Shown here: positions 2,436 to 64,000 of the stretch, piece after piece
How positions within the stretch are numbered: position 1 is the stretch's first letter
Layout: each line of letters begins with the position of its first letter
Notes under the pieces: generated by a model
Seen by the model: only the letters and a program-made list of their open reading frames with translations
Told to the model about the DNA's origin: nothing
Database searches by the model: none
Program-made: the position numbers and the translations under genes
NCBI GenBank assembly: GCA_030295235.1
Contig: AP026164.1
Location: 930,001-994,000, forward strand
DNA: 64,000 nucleotides
Direction: 5' to 3'
From: Fistulifera solaris
Taxonomy: Eukaryota

Positions 2436-3170
2436 GGTTTCTTTGAATCAAGGGGGTGAAATAAATGAGACTGCAAGATAATCACAGTCGTCTTAAATAA
2501 AAGGCAATGACGAAAGGAAGAACCTTTCTATGCGAATAGATAAAGGGATCAAGGTCACTTTTGGAAGAAAGGGGTGAGCAAAGAACGCGAAGCGCAAAAC
2601 TACAGCCGCCGCACCGCAACCGCAACGTGTGGTGTATGGTGTAGTTTGACTCATCGGATGGCGTGACGCTTGCGTGACGCGCAACCAAGAGCGAAGGCAC
2701 AGCGACAAGCGGTGGTGGCGCAGCTTTTGCTGTTCGGATATCACTCTAATCTATAGTGTAGTCTTGTTTCATTCTATTTAACAGAAGTGTATCCGTTGTT
2801 CTCTGGCATTGGAAATTGGAAAATGAATGACTTATCTAATGTTGCATAGTATTATTTTCAACGTATATTTATGAAAAGCTACTAAACAATAAAAAAGATT
2901 AATTAATCGGTATCTTTTCCGTTGTAAATACATCTGTCATTCTTTCAGACCCGAAACTCGAAAACTCGTGGAGGGAATTTTGAGAAGAGGAATTTTCGAT
3001 AATCCGAAAAATCAAGCATCCATCAACCCGTTCCATTAGACATTATTATTTAGAGCCACTATGTGTTGTGATTGGATCTTCGAACCCTTCACTCATGACA
3101 TCGGTTGTTAGTTACCGAGTGCATCAAGAATATTATACTCAAGGAGCAAAGATAGTACCGCTGCTACAAA

Positions 3171-27339: not shown

Positions 27340-29023
27340 ATGAGTCGATTGGTGATACTTTTTGTGACGTTCCTCACCGTGCTTTGCGAGAACGAGAGAG
27401 TTTTTCTTAGATTTCGACCCGGATGCTGAACGATCCATGTCTTGTCGATCGGACGAGTTTCAATGCTACGTTAATTGGCATGACTCCGTAAACGTTGGCG
27501 GGTCGGTTGCAACCTTAATCTCGCCCAATAACACTGACAGTAACGACTTCTCTTCCGGGCTTGCGGCACTTCAACAGCTTGTTGATGAAGTCTACAGCGA
27601 CGGACGCAGAATGCGAGCCTACGGATCAAAATGGTCTCTTAGCAATGTCGCCTATACAAACGATGTTATGATGAATTCACAAGGCCTGACTTATTGCAAA
27701 GTCGGTATTGATGATGAAAGCCACGTGACTGCTGCGTACAAAGGCATTCGGAATCGGCTGGCGATCGTGCAAGCTGGAATGATGGTGAGAGATGTCCACC
27801 AAGCGCTCAAGGTGAAGAATTTAGCGTTATCCACCACTGGAGCTGGAGATGGCCAGCGTTTTGCAGGTGCGATTAGTACGGGAACACATGGCTCCGCGTT
27901 GCACTACGGTGCGATGCAAGAATTCGTCCGCGCGTTACACATTGTGATCCCAGGGGAGCACGTTCTGCTCCAGAGATCTTCCGATCCGGTCATCACGGAC
28001 GCTTTCGGTGAATGGATGGACGGATCCCGCGTCATCGCCAATGATACGCTGTTCGACGCAGCGGTTGTAAGCTTTGGTAGCTTCGGAGTCATTCACGCGT
28101 TAATTATCGAAGCAGAACCACTTTACGAGCTGAAGTTACAGTCGAAGCAATTCAGTTACGACTTAATCAAGCCTGTTCTTGAATCGCTCGATCCAAGCTC
28201 GCTCGGTTTTGACGGAATATATTCCGATTTGCCGTTTCATTTTGAAGTTGCCATCAATCCGTATAATCGCAACACAAATGGATGTTTTGTCCGTCTGTTC
28301 GAGAAGGTGACGCTTTCAGACGAAGAATTTCAAATTCAGCAAGAAAGTGGATTGCTAGACGCGTATGATCCCGAGGAAGCTGACTTGTTTGAGGCGGTTG
28401 GCCAGGCTTTTAGGCCTTCAATGGGACTACTCCCTACCGCGGCGATGAGAAAGGTGGTATTTGGCAGGGGGAGTTCAGTTTGCGTTGCGCAAAGTCTTCC
28501 AAACTAAATCAAGAACAGAACAAAGTAAGACAAAGAAACCATATGAATGGTTTACATTCAAGGGCGCACACGATCCATCGACAATGTCACCGGTCCCTGG
28601 AACTGCCTTTGAGATTGGAGTACCAGCTGAGCGAGTTGTTGAGGCCGTCGAGCTCATTTTCAGCATTGTGGACACTAATCCACTGGCTGCCCCTGTCGCA
28701 ATTCGCTTCATCAAAAAATCTAGGGCGACTTTAGCGTTTACAAAGTTCAATCTGACTGCTTCTATTGAAGTTTCGGGTCCTTACGATCGTGTCTTTTTCG
28801 AAGCCAGATAGAGATTCGGAACAGAATTTACGAAGCACTAGCTACTAGTGGAATACCGCACACCTACCATTGGGGACAGGGCTTTCCCGTGAATGACGTA
28901 TGGATACCATCTGCTTTTGGGGAGCAGCTTGATACATGGAAAAAGACACGGGCCGAGTTCTTGGGTGACTCTATTGAGACATTTTCCAGTGATCTTTTGG
29001 AAGATATTGGATTGTATCCCTAA
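27340..29023 (+). CDS. Secreted FAD-linked oxidase (VAO/PCMH fold, aldonolactone oxidase-like), copy 1; frameshifts near 27385, 28470 and 28797
   Basis: Signal peptide MSRLVILFVTFLTV from ATG 27340, GSKWSLS, GAISTGTHGS, VSFGSFGVI, HTYHWGQ, ends GLYP-TAA. Collinear with the intact copies 3 and 4. Confidence 0.82.
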
Positions 29024-30073
29024 CTTGACGTGTTTTATCCAGTAAGATGATACTTGCTTTCGAGAAACTGATTACATTGCTGCTTAATGAAACTCCTCTG
29101 GTTACTTCGAGCGCCACAGAAAGCATTAGATGCTACGGAGTATTGCTTTTGCAAGTCAGAGCTGGTGCCGAACTTTTTCACGTTTTGTGGTGAGATGGTT
29201 GTGGATAGCTGCTTGGATACCGTGCCCCAACAAAATGCGATAGACATAGCTATAGCCATCAAAGTTGTCGCTTTATCTTTGAGTCTGTCTCAATTTGCTA
29301 TTTATTTGCTCATTCACGTATTGCTAATTTGGAGAATAACTAGTCTGTTTGAAGTTTTTTGACTTTTTTATTGTCTGTTGTCATTAGAACTGAACAAGTC
29401 TTGTTCTCATTCATTGTAACAGGTAAAACCTTTACAAAAATCGAACTGCTCTGGGTTCAGATCGGAAGTCGTCAGCGCCGGGCAACCCAACGCGAAGCTG
29501 ACCGACCATTGAGGAATGCAAGACTTCGTTGAAGTACTTGTTTTTCCATGCAAAATCCGAACTCTTGGTTCGTCGCAAAAACATTCGCATCCATTTGTTC
29601 TTCATGATTTTCTGTCAAGGGGATGCGAACCCAAAGAATGACCTCTAGTAGAGGGCCGTAGTATCGTTGCGGACCGAAACAAAGGCCTCATACCGGACTA
29701 ACAATTGGTGAAAAACAGCACGCTTTTTTGATTTTCACTAATAAATGCGAATACTGAAACGTGTAGCTGCGCAAGGCGCCACAAACACAAAGAGTCGCAT
29801 TTCAGTGACATACATGTTCGCTTCAGAGAGCTAAATGCTATTTGCTCGACGCGAATACCATGCACAGAGCAGCGAGCCTCTTACAGAGTAAAGATCAGAA
29901 CCTTTGCCATTGCTCGCCATTGCCCTTATTCCCTCGTGACAACGAAAATCGAACCTTATATCAATTATGCCTCTCCTCGGTAAAAGCCATTCCGTCAAGA
30001 GTTGCAATGCTCATAAAATACAAACAAATTTCACAGCAAAAATACACATTTTCTAAAAATCTTCACTGATTCC

Positions 30074-31752
30074 ATGATTCGTTCAACACTATTGTGCGCT
30101 CTTTGCTTCACTTCGTTCAGTGCTGCCGAAAGAGATTTTTATCTGCGAGATCCTGATACTGTTAAGGCGTTGGCTTGTCGTCGGCATGAGGATCGATGCT
30201 TCCTCAATTGGTACAAGTCCATCAACGTTGGTGGTCCAATCGAAGCCCGGGAGGCTCCGAATAACACTGATAGCACCGACTTTACGTCCGGTCTCGCGGC
30301 CATCCAAAACATCGTTGACGAAGCTTTTGACAACGGGCTCAGAATCCGAGCCCATGGATCAAAGTGGTCACTCAGTAACGCCGCCTACACAAATGATGTC
30401 ATGATGAACTCACAAGGGCTTACTTACTGCAAAGTCGGTATTGATGATACAGATCATGTGACTCCTGAGTACCAAAACATTCGCGACCGCCTTGTGATCG
30501 TCCAGTCGGGTGTGATGGTGAGGGATCTTCATCAGATACTTAAGAACAACTCGTTGGCCTTGCCTACAACGGTGGCCGCAGGTGGGGAACGCTTAGTAGG
30601 GGCGGTCAGCACGGGGCTCATGGTTCAGCGCAAGCCTACGGCGCGATGCAAGAAGTCGTGCGCGCTATCCATATTGTTATTCCAAGCGGACACTTTTTGC
30701 TTCAGCGAGCTACTGATCCAGTTATCACCGAAGACTTTGGTCTGTGGCTGGATGGAGCCAGCGTCATCAGTGACGATACTCTGTTCAATGCCGCACTTGT
30801 CAGCTTTGGCAGCTTTGGTATCATTCATGCGGTTGTCATCGAAACAGAACCACTTTACGGATTGAAGTTACAATCAAAGCAGTTCAGCTATGACAAGGTA
30901 AGGCCTGTTCTCGAGTCACTAAATCCAAGCTCACTTGGTTTCGATGGAATCGGAACTGAGTTGCCCTTCCACTTTGAAGTTTCATTCAATCCCTACAAGC
31001 GCGACAAGGATGGTTGCTTCGTCCGCTTGTTTGAAAAAAGTTGAACTCCCCGAAGAAGACTTGAGCATTCAGCAAGAGAGTGAACTGTTGGAGACCTACA
31101 GACCGACAAACTTGTTTGAGGCCCTTGACCAGACAATTACAACCTCAATGGCGCTGCTCCCTACGACCATTTTGAAGAAGATTGTGTTCGGTAGAGGTGT
31201 ACAAATTGTGTTGCAGAACGTATTCCGGACTACATCCCCTGGGGATCAGGGTCAGGTAAGGAAACCCTACGAATGGTTCAACTACGAAGGAGCCAAATAC
31301 GCATCGTCGGAAGCCCCAATCGCCGGAACGAGCATCGAGATTGGTGTACCAGCCGATCGAGTAGTCGAGGCCATCGAAATCATCTTCAAGATTGTCGACC
31401 GCGACCCTGTTGCCGCACCAGTTGCCGTGCGCCTTGTCAAAAAGTCCGGTGCAATGTTGGCGTTTACCAAGTATGATCTGACAGCCACCATTGAAATGCC
31501 GGGTCCGTGCGATCGCATCCTTTTCCGCCATCGACTCAAGACTATGCAAAGATCTTTAAAGCGTTTGCCGCTAGTGACATACCGCATACTTATCACTGGG
31601 GTCAGCAACTTCCGTTGAATGAGGTATGGGTACCCAAAGCCTTTGGAGAAGATGTAGTAGAGACATGGAAACAAACACGCGCCGACTTCTTAGGTGATGC
31701 CGTCGACACCTTCTCGAACGAAATGATGGAGGACCTTGGGCTGTACCCGTAA
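30074..31752 (+). CDS. Secreted FAD-linked oxidase, copy 2; frameshifts near 30615, 31038 and 31530
   Basis: Signal peptide, GSKWSLS, GAVSTGxHGS, VSFGSFGII, HTYHWGQ and GLYP spread over four consecutive ORFs. Confidence 0.82.
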
Positions 31753-32198
31753 ATGACTTTTCCGTTTTCATGTTTAGGTAGCATCATTTCATGATCCATC
31801 AATTCCATCAACTTGAATACGTAGCGATTGCATTTGAACACGACAGAATGTTCTTTCAGCCCTAGTATTTTTTGTGTGTCTGCTGCCAAGCGATCTACCC
31901 ATCCTATCCTCTGGATCTGCTAAGATTGGGAAATGAGCAAAGCAATAAGAGATAACTCTCAGGAAATTTTGAGATAATTCTAAAGAAGATATCAAAAAGG
32001 CAACACCGCTGTTGCGTACTCCGTAATATTGATTGATTGACGAGAATGGGCCAATTCAACGTCAACACCTACTTGTACCAAGTATTGCATCGCATAAATG
32101 AGTCCTGAGTTGTCTTCGATCATCCGCTGGTCGCTGGTCGCTGGCGGGTTCGCGGAACTGCTCTTTCGTAATTCGTACGTTTTCGCCAACCACTACCA

Positions 32199-32279
32199 GG
32201 GAACGGCGTTAAAATTCTGCCTCGTCGTAGACGCTAGGTAGAATCTTGTAGTGGGAGGCAGAATTTTAACGTCCTTCCC
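32199..32279. repeat. Inverted repeat / hairpin with 25-bp arms
   Basis: gggaacggcgttaaaattctgcctc (32199-32223) versus the reverse complement of 32255-32279 (gggaaggacgttaaaattctgcctc): 23/25 match, inner 17 bp perfect. Confidence 0.85.
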
Positions 32280-32687
32280 ATATCTGCTGTTGAATAGACG
32301 TCATTTGTACATGGTACCAGGTACACATTTGTATTCACCAATTCACCAAGTATTTGCTTAGGCGTCATGCGGACTTTCGGAGTTTCCTTTCTGTCTGAGA
32401 ACTGGGAAATGGCATCATTGGCAATAAGTGCATTAGCCACGTCATACTATGGAAGAGGTTGGTGGTTGGTGGTATGTGAGAATGGTACTGTATGTGTACT
32501 TTGTACTGTGCATCTGTGTCACAGTATGAGGACTTTCCAAGAACATCACAAACAAAAAGCCTAACTTTTATCACAATCCCAATCGCTGACTCTGACTCTG
32601 ACGGAAGAAAACTAATTGCATGCTCGAACATTGGCCATAGGCAAGGCAGCCAACGCGCGTCAAACATGGTAAAGAATCAAATTGAAA

Positions 32688-34400
32688 ATGAAGACGAACC
32701 CGACGACAGCATTTCTTTATCTCGCGATTTGTTTGGCGCGAGTGGGAGGGCTGGATGGTGAGGAGATGCGTGATAGCCGGCGCTCTTCGTGTGGCAGAAA
32801 CGACGATCAATGCTTTACCAATTGGTACAAATCAGTTGGTGTAGGCGGCTTCGTAGACGAAATTGTTAGTCCGACGAACCAACAGAACCCCGGATTTACA
32901 ATAGATGAAAGCAAATTGTTTTTAAGTGGTCTCACTCTCCTCACGGAACTGGTAGATCGTGTCTACGGCGAAGGGCTGAGAGCCCGCGCTCACGGATCTA
33001 AATGGTCTCTCAATAATATCGCTTACACAGACGATGTCGTGGTCAACTCGCAAGGACTAACTTACAGAAAAATTGGTATCGAAGATGAGACGCACGTTAC
33101 TCCGGAGTACATAGACATTCGCAATCGCTTGGCAATAGTCCAATCGGGAGTCATGACGACAGATATCAACAAAGATTTATCTGAGAAATCACTGGCGCTC
33201 TCCACCAATGCCGCCACAGATGGACAGCGTCTCGTCGGGGCGGTTAGTACGGGGACCCATGGCTCAGCTGTAAACTATGGGTCAATGCCAGAATTTGTTC
33301 GAGCCATCCATATTGTTATCCCTGGAGAACATGTTCTAATTCAAAGAGCATCTGACGTAGTAATAACGGAGTCATTTGCTGAATGGTTGGGTGGAGCTCG
33401 CGTCATCAACGATGATACACTGTTCAACGCTGCTGTTGTCAGCTTTGGTAGCTTTGGGATTATACACGCATTAATCATCGAGGCCGAACCTCTTTACAAA
33501 CTAAGACTACAGTCGAAACAGTTCAACTACGATCAGGTCCGACCTGTATTGGAGTCCCTTGATCCGAGTTCACTTGGTTTCGAAGGAATAGGGTCTGAAT
33601 TGCCTTTTCACTTTGAGGTCGCTATCAATGCTTATAGACGCAACAATGGCGGTTGCTTCGTCCGATTGTTTGAAAAGATAGCCGTTACCGACCAAGCGTT
33701 CAGCACGCAAGCAGAAGGAAATGTCTTTAGTCGCGAGGGTGCAAACGACACTAGTATCGACCTCTACGAAGCTATGGGGACAGCGTTTCGTCCTGCAATG
33801 GGACTTCTTCCCTCGGCATTTCTGAAGCGTAGAGTGTATGGCCGAGTGCTACAGATTGTTCTGCGCAACTTCTTCAAAACCAACCAGAAACGGTTGCAGG
33901 GCGCTTCCAGAAAACCGCATGAGTGGTTCACCTCCCGAAACAATGGCAGTCCCTCCACGACGTCGCCGATCGCTGGAACAGGTTTAGAATTCGGTGTGCC
34001 AGCGGACAGAGTTGTTGAAGTCATCGAAATAATATTTGACATTGTGAGAGACGACCCACTGGCTGGACAAATCGCTATGCGCTTCATCAAGAAATCCAGC
34101 GCAACATTAGGTTTCAACAAATACGACTTGACCGCCACTGTCGAGATGTCGGGTCCCTATGATGTTGTCTTTTTCCGAAATCAAGGACGAGTGCGGCAAA
34201 AAATAAAAGAAGCCATCGCAGCAAGTGGGATCCCTCACACGTATCACTGGGGTCAAGATTTTCCAATCAACGATGAGTGGGTGCGGAATGCCTATGGCTC
34301 TAGCGTTGACGAGTGGAAGCAAGCGCGCTTGGATTTCCTAGGCGATGCCATCGACACCTTTTCGAACGATCTATTGGAAGATCTTGGGCTATATCCTTGA
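32688..34400 (+). CDS. Secreted FAD-linked oxidase, copy 3 (intact)
   Basis: Uninterrupted ORF with signal peptide, GSKWSLN, GAVSTGTHGS, HTYHWGQ and GLYP. Confidence 0.88.
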   Translation: MKTNPTTAFLYLAICLARVGGLDGEEMRDSRRSSCGRNDDQCFTNWYKSVGVGGFVDEIVSPTNQQNPGFTIDESKLFLSGLTLLTELVDRVYGEGLRARAHGSKWSLNNIAYTDDVVVNSQGLTYRKIGIEDETHVTPEYIDIRNRLAIVQSGVMTTDINKDLSEKSLALSTNAATDGQRLVGAVSTGTHGSAVNYGSMPEFVRAIHIVIPGEHVLIQRASDVVITESFAEWLGGARVINDDTLFNAAVVSFGSFGIIHALIIEAEPLYKLRLQSKQFNYDQVRPVLESLDPSSLGFEGIGSELPFHFEVAINAYRRNNGGCFVRLFEKIAVTDQAFSTQAEGNVFSREGANDTSIDLYEAMGTAFRPAMGLLPSAFLKRRVYGRVLQIVLRNFFKTNQKRLQGASRKPHEWFTSRNNGSPSTTSPIAGTGLEFGVPADRVVEVIEIIFDIVRDDPLAGQIAMRFIKKSSATLGFNKYDLTATVEMSGPYDVVFFRNQGRVRQKIKEAIAASGIPHTYHWGQDFPINDEWVRNAYGSSVDEWKQARLDFLGDAIDTFSNDLLEDLGLYP

Positions 34401-35021
34401 GTTCCTTATTCTCATTGCAGTGATTTGGGTAAGAGACTACGTTACTTTGCAAAACGGCTCTCGAGTAGATTGGGACGTCAGGGTTGTAATTGAATTCATT
34501 AGAACTTTCTCTCCTCGAAACATGACTCATCATTCTTCGTCTAGCTAAAATAGACACTTGATCATCGGTTAGAAACCCACAAGCAAGTTTACCTTGTTCA
34601 CCATGAGATTTGAGATTTATGAGATCAAAAAGTTTCGTTTGTCGAGCTTCGTCCAACTTTCCAAAACTTCGGCCGAGAGGGGCGTTTCTTATCTACAGAA
34701 GATGCGTCGGTTCGCGTTTAATTAGGCCTCTGTTTAGGCATCCGTTGTACACATTCTAATATAGGCCACATTGAAAGTTTAAGTAATACGCACTGCACAT
34801 ACAAGCAGTACTTTTCTTGGCTCTAAAAAAGAGCAATGGAGCGGTTAAGTGGCCCAATGAAATTCGAAGGAACGCTAAAAGCTTTTATCGTTTATCCTCC
34901 TTTCGTCCTGCATTTTCTTCCTTAACCTCCAATGCGAATGAGAACCGCTTGGCATAAATCAACTGTATTCATAAAATAATCGTTAATAATTTCCACAACT
35001 CGAGGGCTATTCCTTCCTGCT

Positions 35022-36704
35022 ATGATTCGATCGACACTCTTATGCGCTATTTGCTTCACTTCTTTGAGTGTGGCTCAAACAGACTTCTTTTATCGAGACC
35101 CTGACGCAGCACACGCTATGGCTTGTCAACCCGAAGAGGATCAATGCTACATCAATTGGCACAAGTCTATCAATGTTGGGGGCAAAGTCGAGACACTGCT
35201 GGCTCTCAACAACACGGATAGTACCGATTTCTCGTCTGGACTCGCAGCCCTCCAACAGATTGTCGATCAAGTTGCGAGTGAGGGGCGGAGGATCAAGGCT
35301 TTCGGATCGACGTGGTCGTTGAGCAATGTTGCCTACACAAATGATGTTATGGTGAACTCACAAGGCCTTACTTATTGCAAAGTCGGTATCGATGATGAAA
35401 GTCACGTGACTGCTGCGTACAAAGACATTCGGAATCGTTTAGCTATTGTACAAGCTGGAATGATGGTGAGAGATGTCCACCAAGCGCTCAAGGTGAAGAA
35501 TTTAGCGTTATCCACCACTGGAGCTGGAGATGGCCAGCGTTTTGCAGGTGCGATTAGTACGGGAACACATGGCTCCGCGTTGCACTACGGTGCGATGCAA
35601 GAATTCGTCCGCGCGTTACACATTGTGATCCCAGGGGAGCATGTTCTGCTCCAGAGATCTTCCGATCCGGTCATCACGGACGCTTTCGGTGAATGGATGG
35701 ATGGAGCTCGCGTCATTAGTGATGACACATTGTTCAACGCAGCGGTTGTAAGCTTTGGTAGCTTTGGAATTATTCACGCGTTAATCATTGAAGCTGAGCC
35801 ACTCTACGAGTTGAAATTTCAATCAAAGCAGTTCAACTACGGCCAAATCAAGCCTGTTCTAGAGTCACTCGATCCGAGTTCACTGGGCTTTAAAGGGATC
35901 GGCTCCGAGTTGCCGTTTCATTTCGAAATTGCAATTAATCCTTACAGACGCAACCAAGATGGTTGTTTTGTTCGTTTGTTTGAGAAATTGACGTTGTCGA
36001 GCGAGGAGTTTCGAGTTCAGCAAGAAAGTGGCATGCTGGACGCGTATGATCCCGAAGACACCGATTTGTTCGAAGCAGTTGGTCAGGCGTTCAAACCGGC
36101 TATGGGACTGCTGCTCACGCCATCGTTGAGACGTTTAGTTTTTGGCAGGGGTGTGCAATTCGCATTACGTAGGGTTTTTCAGACGAAAGCCAGAAGGGAG
36201 CAGGGCCAGATAAAGAAACCTTACGAATGGTTTACATTCAAGGGAGCACACGATCCATCGACAAGGTCTCCAGTGCCTGGAACTGGTTTGGAAATTGGTG
36301 TTCCTGTGGATCGAGTGGTCGAGGCTATTGAGCTAATCTTTGCTATTGTCGACTCCGACCCACTGGCCGCCCCAATCGCGATTCGTTTTATTAAGAAGTC
36401 TAGGGCGACGCTGGCATTCACAAAGTATGACTTGACGGCGTCCATTGAAATATCGGGTCCCTATGACAGGGTGGCGTTTCGCCGTCAAATAAAAACTCGC
36501 AATCAAATTTTTGAAACGTTGGTCGCCAACGGAATTCCACACACCTATCATTGGGGGCAACACTTCCCGGTGAATGGTGAATGGGTTCGGAATGCATTTG
36601 GGGCAGATGTTGACGAATGGAAAGATGCTCGCTCTAACTTCTTGGGTGACTCTATTGACATATTTTCAAATGATCTTTTGGAGCATCTTGGTCTGTATCC
36701 GTGA
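35022..36704 (+). CDS. Secreted FAD-linked oxidase, copy 4 (intact)
   Basis: Uninterrupted 560-aa ORF with signal peptide, GSTWSLS, GAISTGTHGS, HTYHWGQ and GLYP. Confidence 0.88.
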   Translation: MIRSTLLCAICFTSLSVAQTDFFYRDPDAAHAMACQPEEDQCYINWHKSINVGGKVETLLALNNTDSTDFSSGLAALQQIVDQVASEGRRIKAFGSTWSLSNVAYTNDVMVNSQGLTYCKVGIDDESHVTAAYKDIRNRLAIVQAGMMVRDVHQALKVKNLALSTTGAGDGQRFAGAISTGTHGSALHYGAMQEFVRALHIVIPGEHVLLQRSSDPVITDAFGEWMDGARVISDDTLFNAAVVSFGSFGIIHALIIEAEPLYELKFQSKQFNYGQIKPVLESLDPSSLGFKGIGSELPFHFEIAINPYRRNQDGCFVRLFEKLTLSSEEFRVQQESGMLDAYDPEDTDLFEAVGQAFKPAMGLLLTPSLRRLVFGRGVQFALRRVFQTKARREQGQIKKPYEWFTFKGAHDPSTRSPVPGTGLEIGVPVDRVVEAIELIFAIVDSDPLAAPIAIRFIKKSRATLAFTKYDLTASIEISGPYDRVAFRRQIKTRNQIFETLVANGIPHTYHWGQHFPVNGEWVRNAFGADVDEWKDARSNFLGDSIDIFSNDLLEHLGLYP

Positions 36705-42414: not shown

Positions 42415-45400
42415 ATGGTGGAAAGCAAAAGAAAGAAGTTTCACGATAAAGACAAGTACTATCGACGTAAGTCTCGGAGACATTTCTCGTCCTTCTTTGG
42501 AGTTTGCCTTGCTATGTGACAATGGCTGGGAAATGAATTTTTGCATTATTCTTTTTTGGTTAAAGACCGACTAACGACTCATTTGTCTCTATTTTTCAGT
42601 TGCGAAAGAGCAAGGGCTAAGATCTCGTGCCGCTTTCAAGTTGAGTCAAATCAACAGAAAATATCCTTTTCTAGAAAAGTGTCAGCATGGAGTCCTAGAT
42701 ATTTGCGCTGCTCCAGGAGGATGGGCGCAGATGTCACTTAAAACCTGCCCGAAGGGTATTCCAATTGTTGCTGTTGATATTCTTCCTATTAGAAATATCC
42801 CAGGAGTCAAAACTCTCATCGGAGATATAACAACGGCCAAATGTCAAGCGGAGATTCACAAAACCGTCGGAAAGGTAGACGCCGTGTTGCATGATGGCGC
42901 TCCGAATGTCGGTGCTGAATACGGTAAAGACGCATACGAACAGAACGAATTGGTATTACATGCTTTGAAATGCGCTACGCATCATTTGTTGCCCGGCGGA
43001 ACGTTCTGTACGAAGGTCTATCGCTCAAAAGACTACGCATCAATTCAGTGGGTTTTGAACCAGCTCTTCGGTACCATTCATACTATCAAACCAGCGGCAA
43101 GTCGTAGTCAGTCGGCAGAAATTTTCTTTCTATGTCTCCAGTACAAGGCACCGACCAAGATAGATCCGCGCTTGTTCGATCCCAAACATATTTTCGCAGA
43201 TGACATCGCCGCCAGCACGGGTGGAGTCATGGCTAGTTCGTCGTCTGGATTGACTGTTCTTGACAAGAATTGGGACAAGAAACGTCGTAAGCGTGGAGGA
43301 TATGATATGGAACACTTGGATGCGACCATGAGACACATTGAAAGTGTTCGCGATTTCGTCATGCTTCCGGCTATGAAGTCGGCGGTGGACCTCTTGTCTC
43401 AGAGTACTGGGCTTTCTTTCTATTGTCAGTCATGTAAAGAAGAGCGCAACGCAGTCGACAAGAAAGACAACAAACTAACTTGTCCTTGCGAATTCCTGTT
43501 GCACCATCCCTTGACCAGTACTGATATCAAAGAATGTATCAGCGATTTGCAAGTTTTGAATCAATCTGACTTCAAAAGGCTTTTGAGTTGGCGAACGCAG
43601 ATGAGAGATGCCCTCAAGGCTAGGGATGAAAGGAATGAAGCAGATTCCGATGAAGAGTCTGACAAAGACGAAAAATCATCAGATATTGATAGCGAAGAGG
43701 AAGATGAAAAAGTGTTACAAGAAATTGCGGAGCTCAAGGCTCGTCGACAACGTGAAAGGAAACGGCAAAAGAAAAAGGAGAAGGAGCTGGCCGCTAAACG
43801 AAGACGCCGTGCGGCGATGGATGTTTTGCAAATCGACGAAGCAGAAGACGACAAGATTTTCACGCTAGCTACTCTTACGAGCCAAGCAGATCTTGACGCC
43901 ACCGTGGATGTCAATCTTGACCAGTTGACTGACGAACAGATTTTTGGGCACGAATCAGATGACGACGAGGGCAATGACCCAGGCAAAAACGCTGATGAGG
44001 ACGAAGAAGAGCGTCGAAAGGCTCTTCGCGAAAAGGCGCTAGACGATGCGTACAACATGTATCTACGAAATACAAAAAAATGGAGAGGCCAAAAGCGGGA
44101 CGAGAATGGCTAAGCGATCTAAGAAGCTTGAGCGACAGAAGGTACTTGAAGAGGCTTTAGAAGACCAGGAGATGGCTCTTGTTGGAAAGAGCATGAGCGA
44201 TTATAACACGCGAACATACGCGGAGATGCTGACAGGACCGAAAGACAGCGACGACAGTGACAGCGATGCAAGTGATGACGATGAAGAAGACGATGGTTTT
44301 AGCGATGATCCCATGACTCCCGAAGAGCACGCAATTCTTGTACAGCAGAGAAAGTCAGAAAAAAAGAAGCCTTCCAATCCGTTGATTCACTCGTTTGCCG
44401 AAGATGAGAAACCCTCCGTCAAGAGCGCTCGCTGGTTTAGCAATCCTCTTTTCACGTCGATCGGTAAGGCAGCAGAAGAGGCTGATATAGACAGCAGACG
44501 TCGAAGTGGTCGTTACGAAGAAGACAACTCTGATGTAGATGAAAATGACGCAGACTCAGTGGGTAGTGACAAACCAAAGAAGAAGAGAAAAGTTGGCATC
44601 AGCGCTGATGAAGTACTGGCAATGATCCCGAAAACGGACAAACAAGTTCGTCACGAGAAAAGATTAAAAGCAATGGCTCGCGAAGAACGAAAGAAAGAAC
44701 GACGTGCGAAGCAGTTAGGAAAATCAGAAGAAGAATTCGAACTTGTGCCAGCTGGGGAGCAGGGAAGCGACGAGAAGGATGATATAATCGATGGGATGGA
44801 CAATATGTCAGAAGCTCAGAAGAAGCGACTTCTTGAAGCCAGAGCCCTCATAAAAGCTGGTATGGGAGCTCAGCCAGGGGTACAGGAAAAAGACGGCTCA
44901 GGTATTGAGGTAGTTCCTGGGCAGCCCCTGCCTAAAGTGGATTTGCGCAATTATGGTGACGAAGATTACGATAGTGATGACTACGCCCAGACGCTTGCTT
45001 TGGGAACTATGATGCTGCGAAGGAGCAAGGAGAAGGCATTTGTAGATGCCTCGTATAATCGTTACGCTTGGAACGATCCGGAAGACCTACCTGACTGGTT
45101 CGTCGATGACGAGAACAAGCACTATCGTCCCCAGCTTCCAATTCCCCCCGACTCTTGTTGCCAAAATGAAAGAAAGAGTTTTGGCGTTGACGACGAAACC
45201 AATCAAGAAAGTAGCCGAAGCTCGCGCGCGAAAGAAGAAACGAGCTCGTGATAAACTGGCAGCAGCGAAAAAGAAAGCCGAAGCGATGGCTAAGTCGAAC
45301 TCAGATATGTCGGAAGCCATGAAACTTAAAGCGATTAGCAAAGCACTGCGCGGGCAGGATTCCAAGAAACCCGGCAAATCTGTCGTTGTTGCGAAGAAAG

Positions 45401-50948: not shown

Positions 50949-53900
50949 ATGGCAAAGTACGCCTACGCGCCGTTGTCAATTGTAAGTTTGCCGATTTTAA
51001 TTTCAATACACGTCTTTCTCGACGGCAGTTTGTCTCATTGTGTCATTTTCCGTGTTGCAGGACGAAGCGCGTCGCCGTCGTTCCTCCAATGATTTACCAC
51101 AACAAGCTCAAGATGATGACGCTCTTGTTCAAGAGCGTATGCCCATGTGTATCGGAATTTGTGTTCTCCTCGCCATTGTGTACGTATTGAGTCGAACCGG
51201 CGATCGCGATGCCATTGCTGTACAACCGCACAACAATGTTCGCGTGGAAAATCACCCGCAACTAGTTCCTACAGCACAGACTACGAACGACGATGACTGG
51301 GATGCATCCGCGCCTACCAAGAGCGCCGCCAAGCCGAGTAAGACACCCAGCGATAGCGTCTGCCACTGCGATCTAAGTCCCGACGAAGCCATGGGCGTAC
51401 TACGAGAACAAGCTCTCAGTCGCACGACACCTCATATTATTGAATGCGCCGCAGCCGATGCGGGGAAATCACAGGCGGCTTGCCATTTGCCCTCTGCGGA
51501 GCGTTTCGCGGCGCTCGGACAGAAGGGAGCGACTTTGTGGATGACTGGCTGCAGTGGAGCGGGCAAAACGACCATCGCGACGGCTCTCGAAGAGCAACTC
51601 GTCAAATATTATGGAAAACACGTGTATCGATTGGATGGTGATAACTTGAGGACGGGACTCAACCGTGATTTGGGGTTCAGTGCGGCCGATCGGGCCGAGT
51701 CGGTTCGTCGAACGGGAGAATTAGCGACACTCTTTGCCGATGCGGGTGTCATTACCCTGGTGGGATTGATTTCGCCGTATGCCGAAGATCGAGATGCGGT
51801 GCGAAAGCGTCATGAGGAGCAAAATATTCCATTCTATGAAGTCTTTTTGGACGTGCCGGTGGATGAACTAAAGAAGCGTGATCCGAAGGGTCAGTACGCG
51901 CGAGTCGAATCGGGTGAATTGAAACACTTCACCTGCATTGATGATCGTTATGATCCTCCAGTCAAACCAGAAATTACTCTCAAGACACATCAACTAGCGA
52001 TTGAAGAATCAGTCAATATTTTGTTGCGACGTCTCGAGCGGGATGGTATTCTTATGGGAGCACCGAAACTGGCTCCTCCTGGACTGCCGAATCCGGATGG
52101 TGATGTCATTGTCGATCTACATGTCCCGGAACATTTGCGAGAACAACGTCGAGCGGAAGCGGGAGACATTACCAAAGGTTCTTATCACAGACATTGATCT
52201 GAACTGGTTGCAAACGGTCGGAGAAGGTTGGGCAAGTCCTCTCAAAGGTTTCATGAGAGAAGGAACCTTATTGGAAACGCTGCATTTTAACTCGATCTTA
52301 ACAGATCCCTTCAATGTGACGGGCAATATTGATCGCCATGAAAAGAAGACGAATTTCGATCAGTTCCCCGAGCATCTGCCGCACAACCGTGTCAGCATGC
52401 CCATTCCGATCACTTTGGCATGTACTGCTTTTACCAAGACTGCTATTGAAAAATCCGGCAAGTCGGCTGTGGCGCTTGTCACACAAATGGGTGAAACCGT
52501 TGCCATTCTGCGTGATCCGGAAATATACAACAACCGCAAAGAGGAGATTGTGACGCGGATGTACGGTGTCATCGACTTTGATCATCCATATGTGAAGCAC
52601 ATCTATTCTGGTGGAGACTACTTGATTGGAGGAGAAGTGGAACTACTTGATCGCATTCGGTACAATGATGGTTTGGATCAGTGGCGCAAAACTGCTTCGG
52701 AACTCCTGAAAGAATTTCAAGACAAAGGTGCGGATACGGTGTACGCCTTTCAAACTCGGAACCCGACGCATTCAGGGCACGCTTATCTGATGCGTTCAGC
52801 GGGGAAGATCTTCGAAAGAAAGGTTACCAGAAACCCGTCTTGTGGCTGAGCCCTCTCGGTGGATGGACAAAGGAAGATGACGTTCCTCTTGATGTCCGCG
52901 TTAAGCAACACGAACATGTTCTAAAAGCCGGAATGTCCCATCCTGGAGGACTTGACCCGGAAACAACCGTCCTGGCTATCTGGCCCGCTCCTATGGTGTA
53001 TGCTGGACCAACGGAAGTTCAATTTCATGCCAAATCGCGCCGTAGCGCTGGTGCCTCTTACTTTGTCGTCGGTCGCGACCCAGCTGGTATGAAGGGTTCA
53101 CCCAATGCCCTCGCTCATCCTGATGATGATCTGTATGACGGCGACCACGGACGCTATGTGCTACAATACTCTCCAGGTCTTCAAGGAATGCAAATGCTCA
53201 GTTTTGTAAAAGTCATGTACGACATTTCCGACAACGTCATGAAAGTACCCGACCCAAGTCGAATGCAAGACTTCATTAGCATCAGTGGGACGAAGATGCG
53301 TCTCTTAGCGCGTAATGGTGCAACACCTTGCAGTCCAACTAACATACCAACTGATCTTGTCGCGGCAAATTGCATTCCAAGTGGATTCATGGTCCCAGAT
53401 GGATGGGAAACTGTCGTCGATTACTATCGAAATATTGACGTGCCTAGTCGCTGGACGCCATGGTCAAAACCAATTGTGAACCCTCCCGCAGACGCGCAAA
53501 CCAAGTACAAAGGAAAGCTGGGATTCACTTCTTTTATGCTTAGAAGTACGGCGGTTGACTCGTATTGGCATGACGTACCGGTGCGTTCGGAGAAGGGTAA
53601 CTTTGTCATCAACATGGTAACAGAGATCCCTATGCACATGACGGCCAAAATGGAACTCAACAAAGAGTTACCACACAATCCAATTATGCAGGATTCCAAC
53701 GATGATGGTTCGACTCGATATTACACGTACGGAACTCCGTTCTTCAACTACGGTTTGATTCCTCAAACATGGGAGGATCCATCGTTGAGGTCGACTGATG
53801 GTTTCGGTGGAGACAACGATCCTCTGGATGTCATGGAAATCGGAATGCATCCATTGAAAATGGGCGGCATCGTCCCTTGCCGTGTCATTGGTTCGTTAGA

Positions 53901-54234
53901 ATTGATTGACGAAGGCGAGACCGACCACAAAATTCTTTGCATTGCCCTTTCCGATCCCGACGCTAATCGAATCAATTCGATTGAAGATCTAGAGAAAGTT
54001 AAACCAGGTCATGTTGATCGTTTGGTCGACTGGTTGAAGATGTACAAGACGAGCGATGGCAAGCCCGAAAACAAACTAGCTTCAGAAACACCTCGATCTG
54101 CGAAAGAAGCCATGATGGTAGTCAAGGAAATGCACGAACGCTGGAAAGCATTGTGTGGCAAGGGTGGCGATTTCACGCACACCGAAAAAACGAAGAGCTT
54201 GTGGTTGAACAGTCCGGGTTGCCGGGGTAGTTAA
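50949..54234 (+). CDS. PAPSS: APS kinase-ATP sulfurylase-inorganic pyrophosphatase fusion with N-terminal TM anchor; exon 1 50949-50981, intron 50982-51060; frameshifts near 52162 and 52802
   Basis: Kinase: LWMTGCSGAGKTT, LDGDNLR, RDPKG. Sulfurylase: GWASPLKGFMRE, AFQTRNPTHSGH, VGRDPAG. Family I PPase: NYGLIPQTWEDP, GDNDPLDV, LIDEGETDHK, YKTSDGKPEN. Confidence 0.93.
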
Positions 54235-54297: not shown

Positions 54298-55167
54298 CTA
54301 TATTCTTGGAAACAAGACTTCATTCAACACTCTTTGCGTCCATTCTTCTCCATACAACGACTTGAGCATGGGTTTCGCGGGATCGTTTGCCAGTCTGTAC
54401 TCGATATAATTCGTCTGTCGATTGAGCGATTTTGTTGCCGGCCGTGAAAGTAACTGAACGTAAATATTCAAGTGTTCTCGAGCGGCTTCGAGTAAGTGAG
54501 TTTGCATTCGTTCAACAGGGTCTTTTACGTCTTCTCCGAACCTAGTCCATAGAGAATACTTCGAAACATACTGTTGCACAGCTTCTGGCATTTCTCCTCC
54601 CCATGGGAACCGTGAAGCTATTTGTTGATTTTCGTACCAATCTCGCCAATGCTCAGCATAATTATCCGACCCACTCATAGGTTGAGCATCGAGTAGTAGC
54701 AAGTGCCGCCCGCCTGGTAAACTAACAAAATCACAACTCCACACGGGCCAATCTGACAATCGGTCTGGGAACACGACCAGATTGAGCACTTGCGGCACTT
54801 CGGGTGCCTCCAGTAAAGCCAGACGCGCGTAACGGACGGGACCAGTTGTGGCACTCAAAGCTCTGGTTTCGATGTGGACATTTTTTGCAAAGTTTGTGGA
54901 TAATATCTCGTCATAATGAACCTCGGATAACTCGGGGAATGACTTGGAAATAACATTCCAAGCCATCTCTGCAATCGGTCTATACAGTCCTTCCACCTTG
55001 TTTTCTTCTTCTTTGTTATGATTCGGATTGTTGGACGTTGCTCGAATCGGTGGCCGAGGAATAGATTGACGATGAAGAAAAGACGATGCAAATCGGCCCA
55101 TCACAATCGCGACGATGAATATGAACACAGGAAATGACGCTGCTTTAGAGTTTCGCTTCTTCATCAT
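54298..55167 (-). CDS. Ferredoxin-dependent bilin reductase, PebB/HY2-like, plastid-targeted
   Basis: QVLNLVVFP, CDFVSLPGG, LDAQP, PWGGEMP, LWTR, YIEYR..NDPAKPMLKSLYGEEWT..EVLF. Signal ending ASS-F. Confidence 0.85.
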   Translation of the reverse strand: MMKKRNSKAASFPVFIFIVAIVMGRFASSFLHRQSIPRPPIRATSNNPNHNKEEENKVEGLYRPIAEMAWNVISKSFPELSEVHYDEILSTNFAKNVHIETRALSATTGPVRYARLALLEAPEVPQVLNLVVFPDRLSDWPVWSCDFVSLPGGRHLLLLDAQPMSGSDNYAEHWRDWYENQQIASRFPWGGEMPEAVQQYVSKYSLWTRFGEDVKDPVERMQTHLLEAAREHLNIYVQLLSRPATKSLNRQTNYIEYRLANDPAKPMLKSLYGEEWTQRVLNEVLFPRI

Positions 55168-55750
55168 TGCTCTCTTTAGTCTTAAGGAATCCGTTGGCCT
55201 TGTTTTGTATTAGGTACGTTGTTTTATAACTCGGTAACTGTCAAGTACTGTAATGATGAATGAATGATACAAGATACTTGTACAACCTCATTTTTTATGC
55301 TTGTTCGTCTGCTCGTCGCGTAAAAAAAAAACGCAGAAAGTGCTTCGTGACTGACGACTTAGTCTTGGTATCCGGTCTGTTAGCCGTCCGTATGCATCGT
55401 GATGATGCATGACGAGATGATGAATGATGACGGCGGCCGATGCAGAGGAGAAACGTCGACACAACCAAAATGCACTAGAGAAAAAAGTGAAGTGCCATGT
55501 CGCACCGACTGTTATTTTTCGTCACCACCTGCACACACGCTCGCTCCCGTTGATTACTTACTTTTCGACAGTGCAAAACTGCAACGTGCCGATCAAAAAC
55601 GCAACCTCGTCTTTTTCGCCCTTTCGACGACCACGGAACCGAGGAAAACAGAAAACGTGGCCTGCCTCATCCGGATCCTCCTTGCGGAAGACAACCTCAT
55701 TGTGTCTCTCCCGTGTCGCGTTCCCTATAATTCAAAAAAACTGAGCAACG

Positions 55751-60253: not shown

Positions 60254-61086
60254 TATTTTCCCTCAGCTTTGTCGTTTTGTCGTCGAAACTCGAAACGAAA
60301 AACGAGCGAACGAGGCGCAGCAAGAATTCGCGAGGGTTGAGGTTACGTCCACTCATCAAAAAAATCATCGTTCGTAGGTCGTACATTTGGCGGGGATGGG
60401 AGCAGTTCGCGGACTGCTCGGAGTCTCTGAGCCAGAGTGTGGATAGCGGACCGTTGAATTCTGGTCACATAGGTTCTTTTCTCGCCACTCCGTCGTAAGA
60501 CTCGAGCTACTTGAAAGCTGATGGCGTTTACATCCTATAGAGAAATAAGAAAACTCACTTATTAGAGGACACTTCGATCTTGGTTATTGATTCAGAAATC
60601 CGCTTAACTAATAATCTAACGGATACTTGTCGCGCAAGCCGGTCTCTACTATGGCCTTTCGATGAAAACGGATCAACGTACCTGGTACTCTTGCGTAGTG
60701 AATCTACTTGCAAGCTGGCTTTGCTGTGTGGACGAGAGACTTTGTCGCCGTCATCGTCGTTCATCTCTCGTCCACGCGGGGAGAAACTAAACAGAACAGA
60801 GATACCGTGGGAATATTCTAACGTCTGAAACCATTGTCATCAGACTTTGATTATTCATCACAACAGATAACTTCATTGACTTGTGCTGAGGGCCGTTGCG
60901 CTAGCGCGAGGAGCGACAAAGCCAAACTTCACACCGTCGTCGAAAGAAAGTCGCAAGGATCTTATTACTGTTGCAGGTCCTCTAACTTCAACCGAGACGC
61001 TCATTCTTCTTTCTGTGATACTTCTCGCAAGGTGATAGGTAAAGACCCGGTGTGGCCCTGCAGATTTTTAGAAAAATCTCAGCAAC

Positions 61087-64000
61087 ATGGAAGCAGGTGC
61101 ATTTGTGTGGGCACGCGACAATGAGGGCGACGAAGCCTGGATCTTGTGCGAAGTATTGAAGAAGACGGACACCGAATTACGATTGAAACAGAAAGACAAG
61201 CCAAGCAATGAGTTCTCTCGTGGAATTGAAACTCTTAACGAGGAGACAGGGGAACGGAAATTTGAGGGAGTTGAATTAGCCAACACTCCGTTGTCGCAAG
61301 AAGAGAAAGAGGAAGGGCGAGACAATGATTTGATCGCTTTACCTCACTTGCATGAACCTGCTATCCTACATGCACTGTCGGATCGGTTCTTTCGCGGTAA
61401 AATTTACACGTGGACAGGACCGGTGTTGATTGCTGTCAATCCATTTCAACGTCTTCCTCTCTATACGGACGACATTCTCGAAGTCTACCGACGAGATGGT
61501 CTGTTGAAAGCACAGGGCATGCAAAGTGGCGATGAACTCGAGCCCCATGTCTTCGCTATTGCTGATCACTCGTATCGTCAGATGATGGGAGAAAAACGAC
61601 GATCCCAGGCCATTCTCATTTCGGGCGAATCTGGAGCTGGGAAAACCGAGTCGACCAAGATTGTCATGCTGTACTTGACCACCCTTGGATCTGGTAGCGG
61701 AGAGGTCGTGAAAGAAAACGGGGGTGATGAGAGTGGAGAGCTTTCTGTCATGCAGAGGGTTTTACAGTCCAACCCTGTACTAGAAGCCTTTGGAAATGCG
61801 AGAACCCTTCGAAACGACAACTCATCTCGTTTCGGCAAGTTCATCGAGCTTGGTTTCTCCCGAGCGGGTCATCTTCTTGGTGCTAAAGTTCAGACCTATC
61901 TTTTAGAAAAAGTTCGACTTGCCTTTCATGCTGCTGGTGAGCGAAACTATCATATCTTCTATCAGCTCTTGCGTGGTTGCTCTGAAGAAGACCATATGAA
62001 GTACGAGTTTCACGACGGTGTTACAGGAGGCTTAGATCTTCCCAACTATTTTCACTACACTGGACAAGGTGGTGCACCGCACTTGCGAGAATTCACGGAT
62101 GAGTCTGGGTTTAAATATACACTCAAAGCCATGCGAAGGCTGGGATGGTCGGAAGAAACGATTGATGCCGTGTTGTCGATCATCGCTGGCCTGTTACACC
62201 TTGGTCAAATATCGTTTGAGTCTGTAGAGGTCGATGGAGTAGAAACAGCCAAAGTCGCATCAGAGAAGACACTCGGATATGCAGCTCGTCTCCTCGGCGT
62301 GGATATTGACAAACTTCGCGCTGCTTTGACGGAACGCATCATTCTGGCACGTGACCAAGAAATCAAGACGCTTCTGACTCCTGATAAAGCCATGGATGCC
62401 CGCGATGCGTTGGCGAAGACCATTTATGGAGCACTCTTCTTATGGGTAGTAGATCAGGTGAACCAGTCGATTTGCTGGGCTGACGACAACGAAGTGCGTT
62501 CTTCGTGCGGTGTCCTAGATATCTTCGGTTTCGAATGTTTCGCTGTGAACTCCTTTGAACAGTTGTGTATCAATTACACAAACGAAGCTCTTCAACAGCA
62601 GTTCAACCAGTTTATTTTCAAACTAGAGCAAGCAGAATACGAAGCAGAGAATATCGAATGGGCTTTCATCGAATTCCCTGACAACCAAGATTGCCTCGAC
62701 ACCATTCAAGCCCCCAAAGTTGGTATCTTATCCATGCTGGACGATGAGTGCAAGTTACCCAAAGGAAGTGATCGCAACTGGGCGAAGCGAATGTATGAGC
62801 AATATCTCCCGGAGAAAAATCAAGTTGTCTCGGCAAATACAAGGTTCCACGCTACGAAGGTTCAGCAAGGTAAATCACTCTTTTGCGTCCGACATTTTGC
62901 AGGCCTTGTCACATACACTGTGGAGACGAATTTCATGGAAAAGAATAAAGATGAAATTCCGATTACTGCTCAGACTTTGCTGGAAACGGCACCAAGTCAG
63001 CTCATCAAAGATACCTACGAAATCCAAAAGCGAGAAAATATAGGTCGCGCCGATGCTGGCAGTAATGCCCGTGCAGCCAAACCCAAAACAGTTGGCCAGC
63101 AGTTCAAGGAGCAACTGACGGCCTTAATTGAAAGCGTGCAGAAAACGGACCCGCATTACATACGATGTATCAAACCCAACGATGCAGCCAAACCTCTTTT
63201 GATGACTCGGAAGCGTACAACTGAGCAACTTCGTTACGGAGGTGTTTTGGAAGCCGTCAGAGTTGCTCGAGCCGGCTACCCAGTCCGAATGGTCCATTCT
63301 GGTTTCTTCCAACGCTATCGGATGTTGCTTCCGACGACACCGGATGATGTTCTTCCTTGGAGCATGGATGGTCATGTGGCTCAAGATCTGTGCGTGAAAT
63401 TAGTTCAGATTGTGTTGGAAGACGGAAAGAAACACAGGGAGGCTACTAAAGATGGTCCGCTTGATCCCCATGAGCCTGGAATCACTCGATCGGAGAAGAT
63501 CAGGCGTATGCAAAATCAGCCTATACCAATGGCATTTCCAATAACTGATGTGCAACTAGGAAAGACCAAGGTTTTCATGCGCAAGCATCCTCACGATTGC
63601 ATGGAGGCACATCGCGTTTTTCATCAGCACGCTAGTGCTACTGTGATGCAAAGTTGGGCTAGAGGCTTGGCGCAACAACGGAAGTACCTTATCGTTGGAG
63701 ATGCTGCGCTCACCATTCAACGTTGTTACCGTGGATACAAGGGCCGTGAAAGGTATGTGACAAGATGCATTTATTGTGTCAACGGCTTTTCAAGTTTTTG
63801 TATTCTTACCCATGTCTATCTTCAGATGGTGGGACCTACGAAAAGCAGATGCTGGAATGCTGCTCACCAAGGTATTTCGTATGCTTATTTCATGGCGAAA
63901 GTTCAATCGGGTCAGAAAAGGAACTGTTCGCTTGCAAGCTCACATTCGTGGTCGCACCGTTCGTCGTGAGCAAGCTAGCATTAGAGTTCAACGATACTAT
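61087..64000 (+). CDS. Myosin heavy chain (motor plus IQ motifs), truncated by the window end; intron 63753-63825
   Basis: GESGAGKT, LEAFGNARTLRNDNSSRFGKF, LDIFGFE, NSFEQLCINYTNE, PHYIRCIKPN, QLGKTKVF. IQ motifs continue after splicing (LQAHIRGRTVR). Confidence 0.96.

Follow-up and report, generated by a model that had tools for sequence, protein, structure and literature searches.

A conserved tail, hydrophobic helix and stem precede the catalytic domains of the fused PAPS synthase of the diatom Fistulifera solaris and predict a membrane anchor

A 64,000-nucleotide (nt) stretch of the Fistulifera solaris genome (assembly GCA_030295235.1, contig AP026164.1, positions 930,001 to 994,000 of the forward strand; hereafter the window) has a G+C content of 46%, short GT..AG introns and best matches that fit a diatom nuclear genome. 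On its forward strand, at positions 50949 to 54234, lies a gene for a fused enzyme of sulfate activation that joins an APS (adenosine 5'-phosphosulfate) kinase, an ATP sulfurylase and an inorganic pyrophosphatase. The product of such an enzyme is PAPS (3'-phosphoadenosine 5'-phosphosulfate), the donor for all sulfation. The catalytic domains are preceded by an N-terminal tail, a single hydrophobic helix and a flexible stem, all three of which recur in relatives across several eukaryotic lineages. The gene product, of about 1067 residues, is predicted to be a single-pass, signal-anchored PAPS synthase.

The PAPS synthase gene and its coding sequence

Pfam recovers the three catalytic domains in the order APS kinase, ATP sulfurylase and inorganic pyrophosphatase, downstream of the stem and of a four-cysteine module, as an earlier reading of the window from its sequence alone (the sequence-only reading) had proposed. 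The APS kinase domain (51523..51981; PF01583, 3e-56) has its P-loop, GCSGAGKT, at 51547-51570 and matches solved APS kinases and the kinase domains of human PAPSS1/2 with E-values of about 1e-50 to 1e-52. A PUA-like domain and the first part of the ATP sulfurylase follow in a second frame (52169..52807; PF14306 (PUA_2), 3.1e-31, and PF01747, 1.2e-10), with the HxxH motif of the sulfurylase, QTRNPTHSGH, at 52751-52780. Compared with human PAPSS1/2, the PUA-like domain has an insertion of about 28 residues that includes NVT (52304-52324). The second part of the ATP sulfurylase (52840..53331; PF01747, 1.7e-33) matches 4maf, 7fh3 and 1x6v, and the sulfurylase has a cysteine-bracketed loop, CSPTNIPTDLVAANC (53329..53373), within an insertion of 16 residues relative to the soybean and human enzymes. 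Exactly two cysteines are present in this loop in 235 of 235 triple fusions matched by the loop pattern, 15 of the 250 examined not matching it. The family I inorganic pyrophosphatase domain (53614..54147; PF00719, 3.3e-39), with DNDPLD at 53812-53829, matches solved eukaryotic pyrophosphatases with E-values of about 1e-47 to 1e-48. The protein ends in ..SPGCRGS before a TAA stop codon (54232..54234), and the C-terminal ..GCRG.. is found again in named diatoms. With a P-loop APS kinase, a PUA-like/ATP sulfurylase unit bearing HxxH and a C-terminal family I pyrophosphatase, the protein is a member of the triple-fusion family, its three domains lying on one reading frame if the two frame changes described below are errors. 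It is an orthologue of named diatom proteins, with 60-80% identity to them over the first 370 residues.

The gene opens with a small exon that the sequence-only reading had described as hidden, and both this exon and the intron behind it were found where that reading had put them. Exon 1 (50949..50981; 11 codons, Met1-Ile11, MAKYAYAPLSI) begins with an ATG flanked by A at -3 and G at +4; 12 codons upstream of this ATG the frame is closed by two stops. Within the exon Tyr6-Ala-Pro-Leu9 forms a YxxPhi motif. Intron 1 (50982..51060), read from the sequence like the tail and the four-cysteine module described below, is a phase 0 intron of 79 nt with the borders GTAAGT...TTGCAG, and its retention would shift the frame and lead to a stop after 47 codons. 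With the intron removed, the reading continues into exon 2 at 51061 (DEARRRRSS).

Support for this structure comes from a search limited to longer proteins, in which the best 120 of 420 matches were listed. Each of these 120 has the kinase, PUA-like and sulfurylase domains and most have the pyrophosphatase, and those that are named come from diatoms. The exon-1 motif stands at the start of 59 of the 120 models, spliced as proposed in 54 and followed in five (P0002, P0008, P0037, P0069 and P0073) by read-through into the intron at the same codon boundary. Another 31 models start at or in the helix, and the starts of the other 30, including that of the closest database protein, P0001, are mostly read out of the intron. 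All 13 entries among the listed 120 that carry MMETSP/CAMPEP transcriptome labels start with the exon-1 motif. Judged by these model starts and by the transcriptome-labelled entries, exon 1 is real, the position of the intron is old and gene predictors often lose the exon. Models that lack exon 1 or start at the helix amount to 61 of the 120, and predictions of targeting made from them are unreliable.

As written in the window, the coding sequence is not one open frame, a feature that the sequence-only reading had missed. A tblastn search with P0001, which is 97% identical, gave three pieces, 51001-52176 in frame 1, 52115-52837 in frame 2 and 52798-54231 in frame 1. The first frame change falls at a GGG run (52161..52163) where relatives imply GG (..AEAETLPKV..), so that one G is extra, and the second at a GGGG run (52801..52804) where relatives imply GGGGG (..RSAGEDLRKKGY..), so that one G is missing. 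It is possible, though unlikely, that these changes are real. This copy would then be a disabled gene or would yield nothing more than an anchored APS kinase with its stop at the TGA at 52195-52197; the first frame as written does end at 52197, and 640 nt pass before the second change brings the frame back. Both changes, however, involve single bases in G runs, and the part that they shift is 98.1% identical to P0001 (210/214) and so free of decay. The corresponding values are 99.5% for the kinase, 97.9% for the C-terminal part and 93.4%, the lowest of the four, for the segment from the tail to the four-cysteine module. Other genes of the window change frame as well. The gene for the ribosomal RNA methyltransferase Spb1, which is essential, does so at a C6 run near 45150 (45140-45175), one paralogue of a flavin adenine dinucleotide (FAD) oxidase at a G5 run near 28470 (28450-28495) and a T5 run near 28795 (28780-28830), and another FAD-oxidase paralogue near 31550 (31530-31570), where there is no long run. 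Three of these four changes thus adjoin runs of five or six bases. Because the out-of-frame part of the PAPS synthase is so similar to P0001 and because other genes in the window change frame alike, both of its frame changes are probably homopolymer-length errors of the assembly. This suggests that the assembly carries such errors and that a reading of the window based on open reading frames under-calls its genes.

The tail, helix and stem and their conservation

Behind exon 1 the tail continues from Asp12 to Arg37 (51061..51138) and includes RRRR (51070-51081) followed by an acidic DDD; the basic cluster after the exon-1 motif is found again in named diatoms. The helix, MPMCIGICVLLAIVYVLS (51139..51192; Met38-Ser55), consists of 18 uncharged residues between Arg37 and Arg56, and its mean Kyte-Doolittle hydropathy over 17 residues is about 2.6 in P0001. 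A hairpin or monotopic segment was considered and rejected because the uncharged span is only about 18 residues long. The stem (51193..51360; 56 residues) is rich in Pro, Thr, Ser, Asp and Ala, begins with acidic residues in the window protein and differs in length and sequence among species. It leads into the four-cysteine module, CHC...IIEC...ACHLP (51361..51492; 44 residues), in which IIEC, Q and CH are invariant in 23 aligned sequences. Both the stem and the four-cysteine segment ahead of the kinase thus agree with the sequence-only reading. Residues 12-381 were modelled with AlphaFold2 from an alignment of 23 sequences, with a mean predicted local distance difference test score (pLDDT) of 70.7. 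In this model the hydrophobic segment lies in a single long helix (fragment residues 16-46, block pLDDT 74-90), the stem is without structure (fragment residues 51-95, pLDDT < 50) and the kinase core is predicted with confidence. The four-cysteine module scores only moderately (about 50-68), and the model offers no confident fold for it. The protein accordingly has a tail of 37 residues, one hydrophobic helix away from the extreme N-terminus and, between this helix and the catalytic part, a stem whose low pLDDT and variability among species indicate flexibility, all of which are features of a type II signal anchor. The layout of short tail, one short transmembrane segment and stem had been described correctly, and the hydrophobic stretch can now be specified as a conserved single helix about 40 residues from the N-terminus and not a terminal signal peptide.

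For comparisons with other proteins, a helix was counted where the mean Kyte-Doolittle value reached at least 2.0 over a 17-residue window before the P-loop. The comparison of orthologue N-termini had been named in advance as a check on the anchor, and the outcome that would tell against it, loss of the hydrophobic stretch, was not seen, as 118 of the 120 best matches have the helix and the models of the remaining two begin inside it. What is conserved is the sequence itself (..ERMPxCxGxCVLLAIVYVLSRTG..), beyond mere hydrophobicity, and A38, I39, V42 and L43 of the helix are invariant in 23 ochrophyte sequences. In diatoms, brown algae, eustigmatophytes and chrysophytes the helix (..AIVYVL[SA]R..) is nearly invariant. 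Such invariance is far above what anchoring needs and, as far as alignments can tell, points to a specific helix-helix contact, in dimerisation or with a partner.

The sequence-only reading had treated the anchor as a diatom matter, and this did not hold, since the layout spans several eukaryote lineages. An exhaustive search of representative sequences and two follow-up searches collected 421 proteins in all. Tail, helix and stem are present in the oomycetes Pythium, Lagenidium, Plasmopara, Bremia, Phytophthora, Aphanomyces, Saprolegnia and Achlya, in the other stramenopiles Ectocarpus, Ochromonas, Nannochloropsis, Chrysophaeum and Florenciella, and in the chlorarachniophytes Partenskyella and Lotharella and the diplonemid Diplonema papillatum. 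By group, the layout is found in oomycetes, brown algae, chrysophytes, eustigmatophytes, pelagophytes, dictyochophytes, haptophyte-like forms, chlorarachniophytes and diplonemids. In each named relative the kinase is preceded by a tail of some 25-65 residues, a single hydrophobic segment and a stem that varies, the sole exception being a truncated model from Bigelowiella. All three catalytic motifs occur in 250 of the 421 proteins, and 202 of these 250 reach the helix threshold; among the remaining 48, most either start within or beyond the helix or score 1.5-1.97. One group that seemed to lack the anchor (about 920-950 residues; P0377-P0382 and others) was set aside, as its models begin at an internal Met of longer haptophyte-like proteins, and these do have a tail and a helix, and their stems contain CPxCP-type repeats with as many as 20 or so cysteines. 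A metazoan-type enzyme from a nematode that was also collected has no pyrophosphatase, helix or cysteine-bracketed loop. The diplonemid-type relatives P0153, P0152 and P0156 have an additional cysteine-rich insertion between kinase and sulfurylase (CC...C...HCP...C..AC) that is absent from the diatom protein. The triple-fusion family is known, and its conserved tail, helix and stem appear to be a new aspect of it.

A hydrophobic segment in this position may also be part of a targeting signal, and the enzyme of Thalassiosira pseudonana has been placed in the plastid on such grounds. An excerpt of Patron et al. 2008 (PMC2275785) describes for the T. pseudonana fusion model a 'signal peptide' and a region resembling a transit peptide and calls the protein plastidial, while calling the one from Phytophthora cytosolic. 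On this view the segment would be the signal-peptide half of the bipartite presequence of diatom plastid proteins, and the stems of Thalassiosira, which are rich in Ser, Thr and Ala and carry few charges, are compatible with it. The plastid call is itself, in the words of the part of Prioretti et al. 2014 that deals with Thalassiosira, to be 'taken with care' (PMC4220642). Once exon 1 is counted, moreover, the segment begins at residue 38 behind a conserved tail and not at the extreme N-terminus. In diatom plastid proteins Phe, Trp, Tyr or Leu comes directly after the signal peptide; here the residue after ..VLS is Arg, in the window protein and in 120 of the 120 listed matches that show the site. 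The segment is also conserved in sequence, unlike signal peptides, the stem of the window protein has an acidic start, and tail, helix and stem are present in oomycetes and diplonemids (Diplonema), which have no plastid. Plastid targeting was rejected on the position of the segment, the residue at +1 and the presence of the layout in plastid-less lineages, and a plastidial enzyme is now scarcely to be expected.

The neighbouring gene on the reverse strand (54298-55209), arranged tail-to-tail with the PAPS synthase gene at 64 nt from its stop, encodes a ferredoxin-dependent bilin reductase (PF05996, 8.3e-35) and offers a contrast within the window. Its N-terminus has a hydrophobic core, then ..FASS and then F, which we take to be a classical diatom plastid signal.

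A cleavable signal could alternatively arise through an internal start at Met36 or Met38, or through cleavage after ..VLS, and would give a soluble enzyme in the lumen or outside the cell. Two in-frame methionines do stand just ahead of the segment, the residues at -1 and -3 are small (V-L-S, or V-L-A in chrysophytes), and there are the 31 of 120 best-match database models that begin at or in the segment. These starts are choices made in gene modelling, however, and every one of the 13 transcriptome-labelled entries has the full tail. An uncharged span of 18 residues is long for a cleaved signal, and the motif in the tail would serve no purpose. Cleavage is therefore regarded as very unlikely.

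Orientation of the enzyme and the place of PAPS synthesis

If the segment anchors the protein, the catalytic domains may face the lumen of the secretory pathway or the cytosol. The reading favoured here, held with about equal measures of belief and doubt, is that of a lumenal sulfate-activating enzyme with a type II anchor. The helix would enter the membrane of the endoplasmic reticulum (ER) in type II fashion, leaving the tail in the cytosol, and the whole sulfate-activating unit would come to lie in the lumen of the secretory pathway, where it would convert ATP and sulfate to PAPS beside the lumenal sulfotransferases. The fused pyrophosphatase would clear inorganic pyrophosphate in a compartment that has no other pyrophosphatase, the cysteines of the stem may join the dimer, and the N-terminal YxxPhi motif could be read by cytosolic adaptor complexes. 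The Golgi as the compartment and the sulfation of extracellular polysaccharides as the use of the product are guesses.

Two sets of sequences were used to compare the flanks of the helix, one of 84 diatom-like sequences and one of 109 full-length sequences from outside the best-120 list, mostly non-diatom. In the second set the six residues before the helix have an average charge of +2.02, versus +0.26 for the six after it, and the N-terminal flank is the more positive in 93 of 109 sequences, as expected if the tail remains in the cytosol. Despite divergence elsewhere in the tail, 61 of the 84 diatom-like and 80 of the 109 other sequences have a YxxPhi motif among their first 16 residues. Cytosolic adaptors recognise motifs of this kind, and a helix as short as this one suits ER and Golgi membranes better than the plasma membrane. 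Repeated CPxCP-type motifs occur in the stems of haptophyte-like forms, Ectocarpus and Cylindrotheca, and Cys/Pro repeats of this type resemble the hinges of antibodies or of covalent dimers. Only three cysteines follow the helix in 18 sequences; one of these, in the named oomycetes, is a stem cysteine, and we infer that the other two are those of the clade-specific loop.

Several observations weigh against a lumenal enzyme, and orientation was assessed from charge and hydropathy counts on sequences. In the diatom-like set the 15 residues before the helix average -2.12, versus +0.10 for the 15 after it, with the N-terminal flank the less positive in 77 of 84, and over six residues the two flanks do not differ; by the charge-difference rule alone, the N-terminus of the window protein would be outside and the enzyme in the cytosol. 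A bias toward even numbers of cysteines after the helix was sought in 157 sequences and was not found (52 even versus 105 odd). Nor are NxS/T sequons enriched in the stems, where 61 were seen against 140.5 expected from shuffles, and the tail, stem and kinase of the window protein have none. In the clade-specific PUA insertion, 174 of 195 sequences have the NxT, but the position reads D-L-T in chlorarachniophytes, and because of this its conservation points to a structural motif. An enzyme in the lumen would need ATP and sulfate to be imported. One partially available source lists no ATP sulfurylase or APS kinase for Phytophthora sojae other than the fusion, beside a cytosolic PAPS reductase (PMC2275785), and another source, again in excerpt, draws the oomycete enzyme as the first step of assimilation (PMC6493774). 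With a sole activating enzyme and a cytosolic PAPS reductase, PAPS would therefore need to be exported if it were made in the lumen. Finally, the diatom and haptophyte fusion is labelled cytosolic in the available part of Prioretti et al. 2014 (PMC4220642). The proposal of the sequence-only reading that catalysis faces the lumen is thus sustained in part, by basic N-terminal flanks in non-diatom relatives, the N-terminal YxxPhi motif and stems rich in Cys and Pro, and contradicted in part, by the flank charges of diatoms, the missing even-cysteine bias and the depletion of NxS/T.

The same observations bear on a tether of type III, with its N-terminus in the lumen, that would hold the enzyme on the cytosolic face of an endomembrane, where PAPS would be made near the PAPS transporters and would be open to cytosolic enzymes. 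The flanks of the diatom-like proteins favour this arrangement, as do an Arg that always stands directly after the helix, the missing cysteine bias and the missing sequon enrichment. The cytosol supplies ATP and sulfate, and an enzyme facing it would fit the cytosolic PAPS reductase of oomycetes given in part of the literature (PMC2275785; PMC6493774). The relatives outside the best-120 list, on the other hand, have their basic residues before the helix, and in most of the named oomycete sequences the region after it carries no net positive charge. Since the helix and its flanks are homologous across ochrophytes, a flip in diatoms only is unlikely, and a tail of about 37 residues with four consecutive arginines would have to cross the membrane. 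We know of no lumenal role for a conserved N-terminal YxxPhi motif. A cytosol-facing tether is therefore possible, though on balance doubtful.

Under either orientation, the anchor suggests that diatoms may make their PAPS within the secretory pathway or on its surface instead of free in the cytosol. The extension of the lumenal reading to the whole clade is tentative, and rather more doubted than believed: stramenopiles, haptophyte-like algae, chlorarachniophytes and diplonemids would share lumenal PAPS synthases as self-contained sulfate-activating units, with the pyrophosphatase fused because the compartment has none. If this were true, Golgi sulfation in these organisms would be independent of PAPS import, and the activated sulfate that oomycetes assimilate would leave the lumen by export. 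The usual account has PAPS carried into the Golgi. Its synthesis is assigned, in the available parts of three sources, to the cytosol, the nucleus, the plastid or, in Entamoeba, the mitosome (PMC3734648, PMC11350084, PMC9796589). If the sole fused PAPS synthase that diatoms, brown algae, oomycetes and others possess has a conserved anchor, the place of this step in maps of sulfur metabolism would shift and the labels 'cytosolic' and 'plastid' found in reviews would need correcting. The anchor would also offer a reason for the fusion of the pyrophosphatase and bear on the sulfation of the polysaccharides that marine algae export in bulk.

Known PAPS-producing systems and other genes of the window

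The triple fusion described for stramenopiles and haptophytes has, as far as the excerpts of two accounts go, the same three domains in the same order as the window protein (PMC2275785, PMC4220642). Those excerpts give its location as cytosolic, or plastidial in the case of T. pseudonana, and mention no tail, membrane helix or stem, which are conserved here. A section of Mueller and Shafqat 2013 mentions the triple fusion only for the pyrophosphatase (PMC3734648). A full-text search of the literature found no description of a membrane-anchored or lumenal PAPS synthase, which is not proof that none exists. It appears that the literature covered either missed the tail, helix and stem or took them as a plastid signal.

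Metazoan PAPSS1 and PAPSS2 (1x6v, 2qjf, 7fh3) share the order of kinase and then sulfurylase and the catalytic motifs with the window protein (E-values of about 1e-46 to 1e-52 per domain). They differ in having no pyrophosphatase, no anchor and neither the 16-residue insertion with the cysteine-bracketed loop nor the PUA insertion of about 28 residues, and they are soluble proteins of the nucleus or cytoplasm according to part of one review (PMC3734648). The carbohydrate and tyrosylprotein sulfotransferases and the Golgi PAP (3'-phosphoadenosine 5'-phosphate) phosphatase have a similar layout and no sequence relation to the window protein. Type II sulfation enzymes of the Golgi consist of a short cytosolic tail, one short helix, a flexible stem and the catalytic part. 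For the tyrosylprotein sulfotransferase TPST1, the title of a study listed as reference 9 in PMC3734648 reports dimerisation and Golgi localisation driven by its helix. These enzymes use or clear the nucleotide, whereas the window enzyme would make it, and its orientation is only predicted.

The nearest parallel in logic is the mitosome of Entamoeba, in which, in the available part of one study, ATP sulfurylase, APS kinase and inorganic pyrophosphatase are enclosed together and PAPS is exchanged across the membrane (PMC9796589). By analogy, an enclosed compartment with a pyrophosphatase of its own would have a precedent there. The three mitosomal enzymes, however, are separate soluble proteins in a mitochondrion-related organelle, and the PAPS is exported for cytosolic sulfotransferases. 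Plant plastids, as described in an excerpt of a further source (PMC11350084), make PAPS in the organelle for use elsewhere by way of a PAPS/PAP exchanger and thus provide a precedent for export; their enzymes are again separate and soluble, in a compartment other than the one proposed for the window enzyme.

Another gene of sulfur metabolism lies on the reverse strand of the window. An open reading frame at 17824-19830, perhaps extending to 20342, joins an FGE-sulfatase-type domain to a C-terminal S-adenosylmethionine (SAM) methyltransferase domain, a layout that is presumably that of the ovothiol synthase OvoA, and it has no evident link to the PAPS synthase. The FAD-oxidase paralogues mentioned above belong to a tandem array of four FAD_binding_4 genes on the forward strand (27368-36704) with 39-64% mutual protein identity, one of which has an ALO (arabinonolactone-oxidase-like) domain. 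The window also encodes an Aquarius-type helicase (3156-7205, forward strand), cytochrome c1 (11222-12064, reverse strand) and a myosin heavy chain (61072-63969, forward strand).

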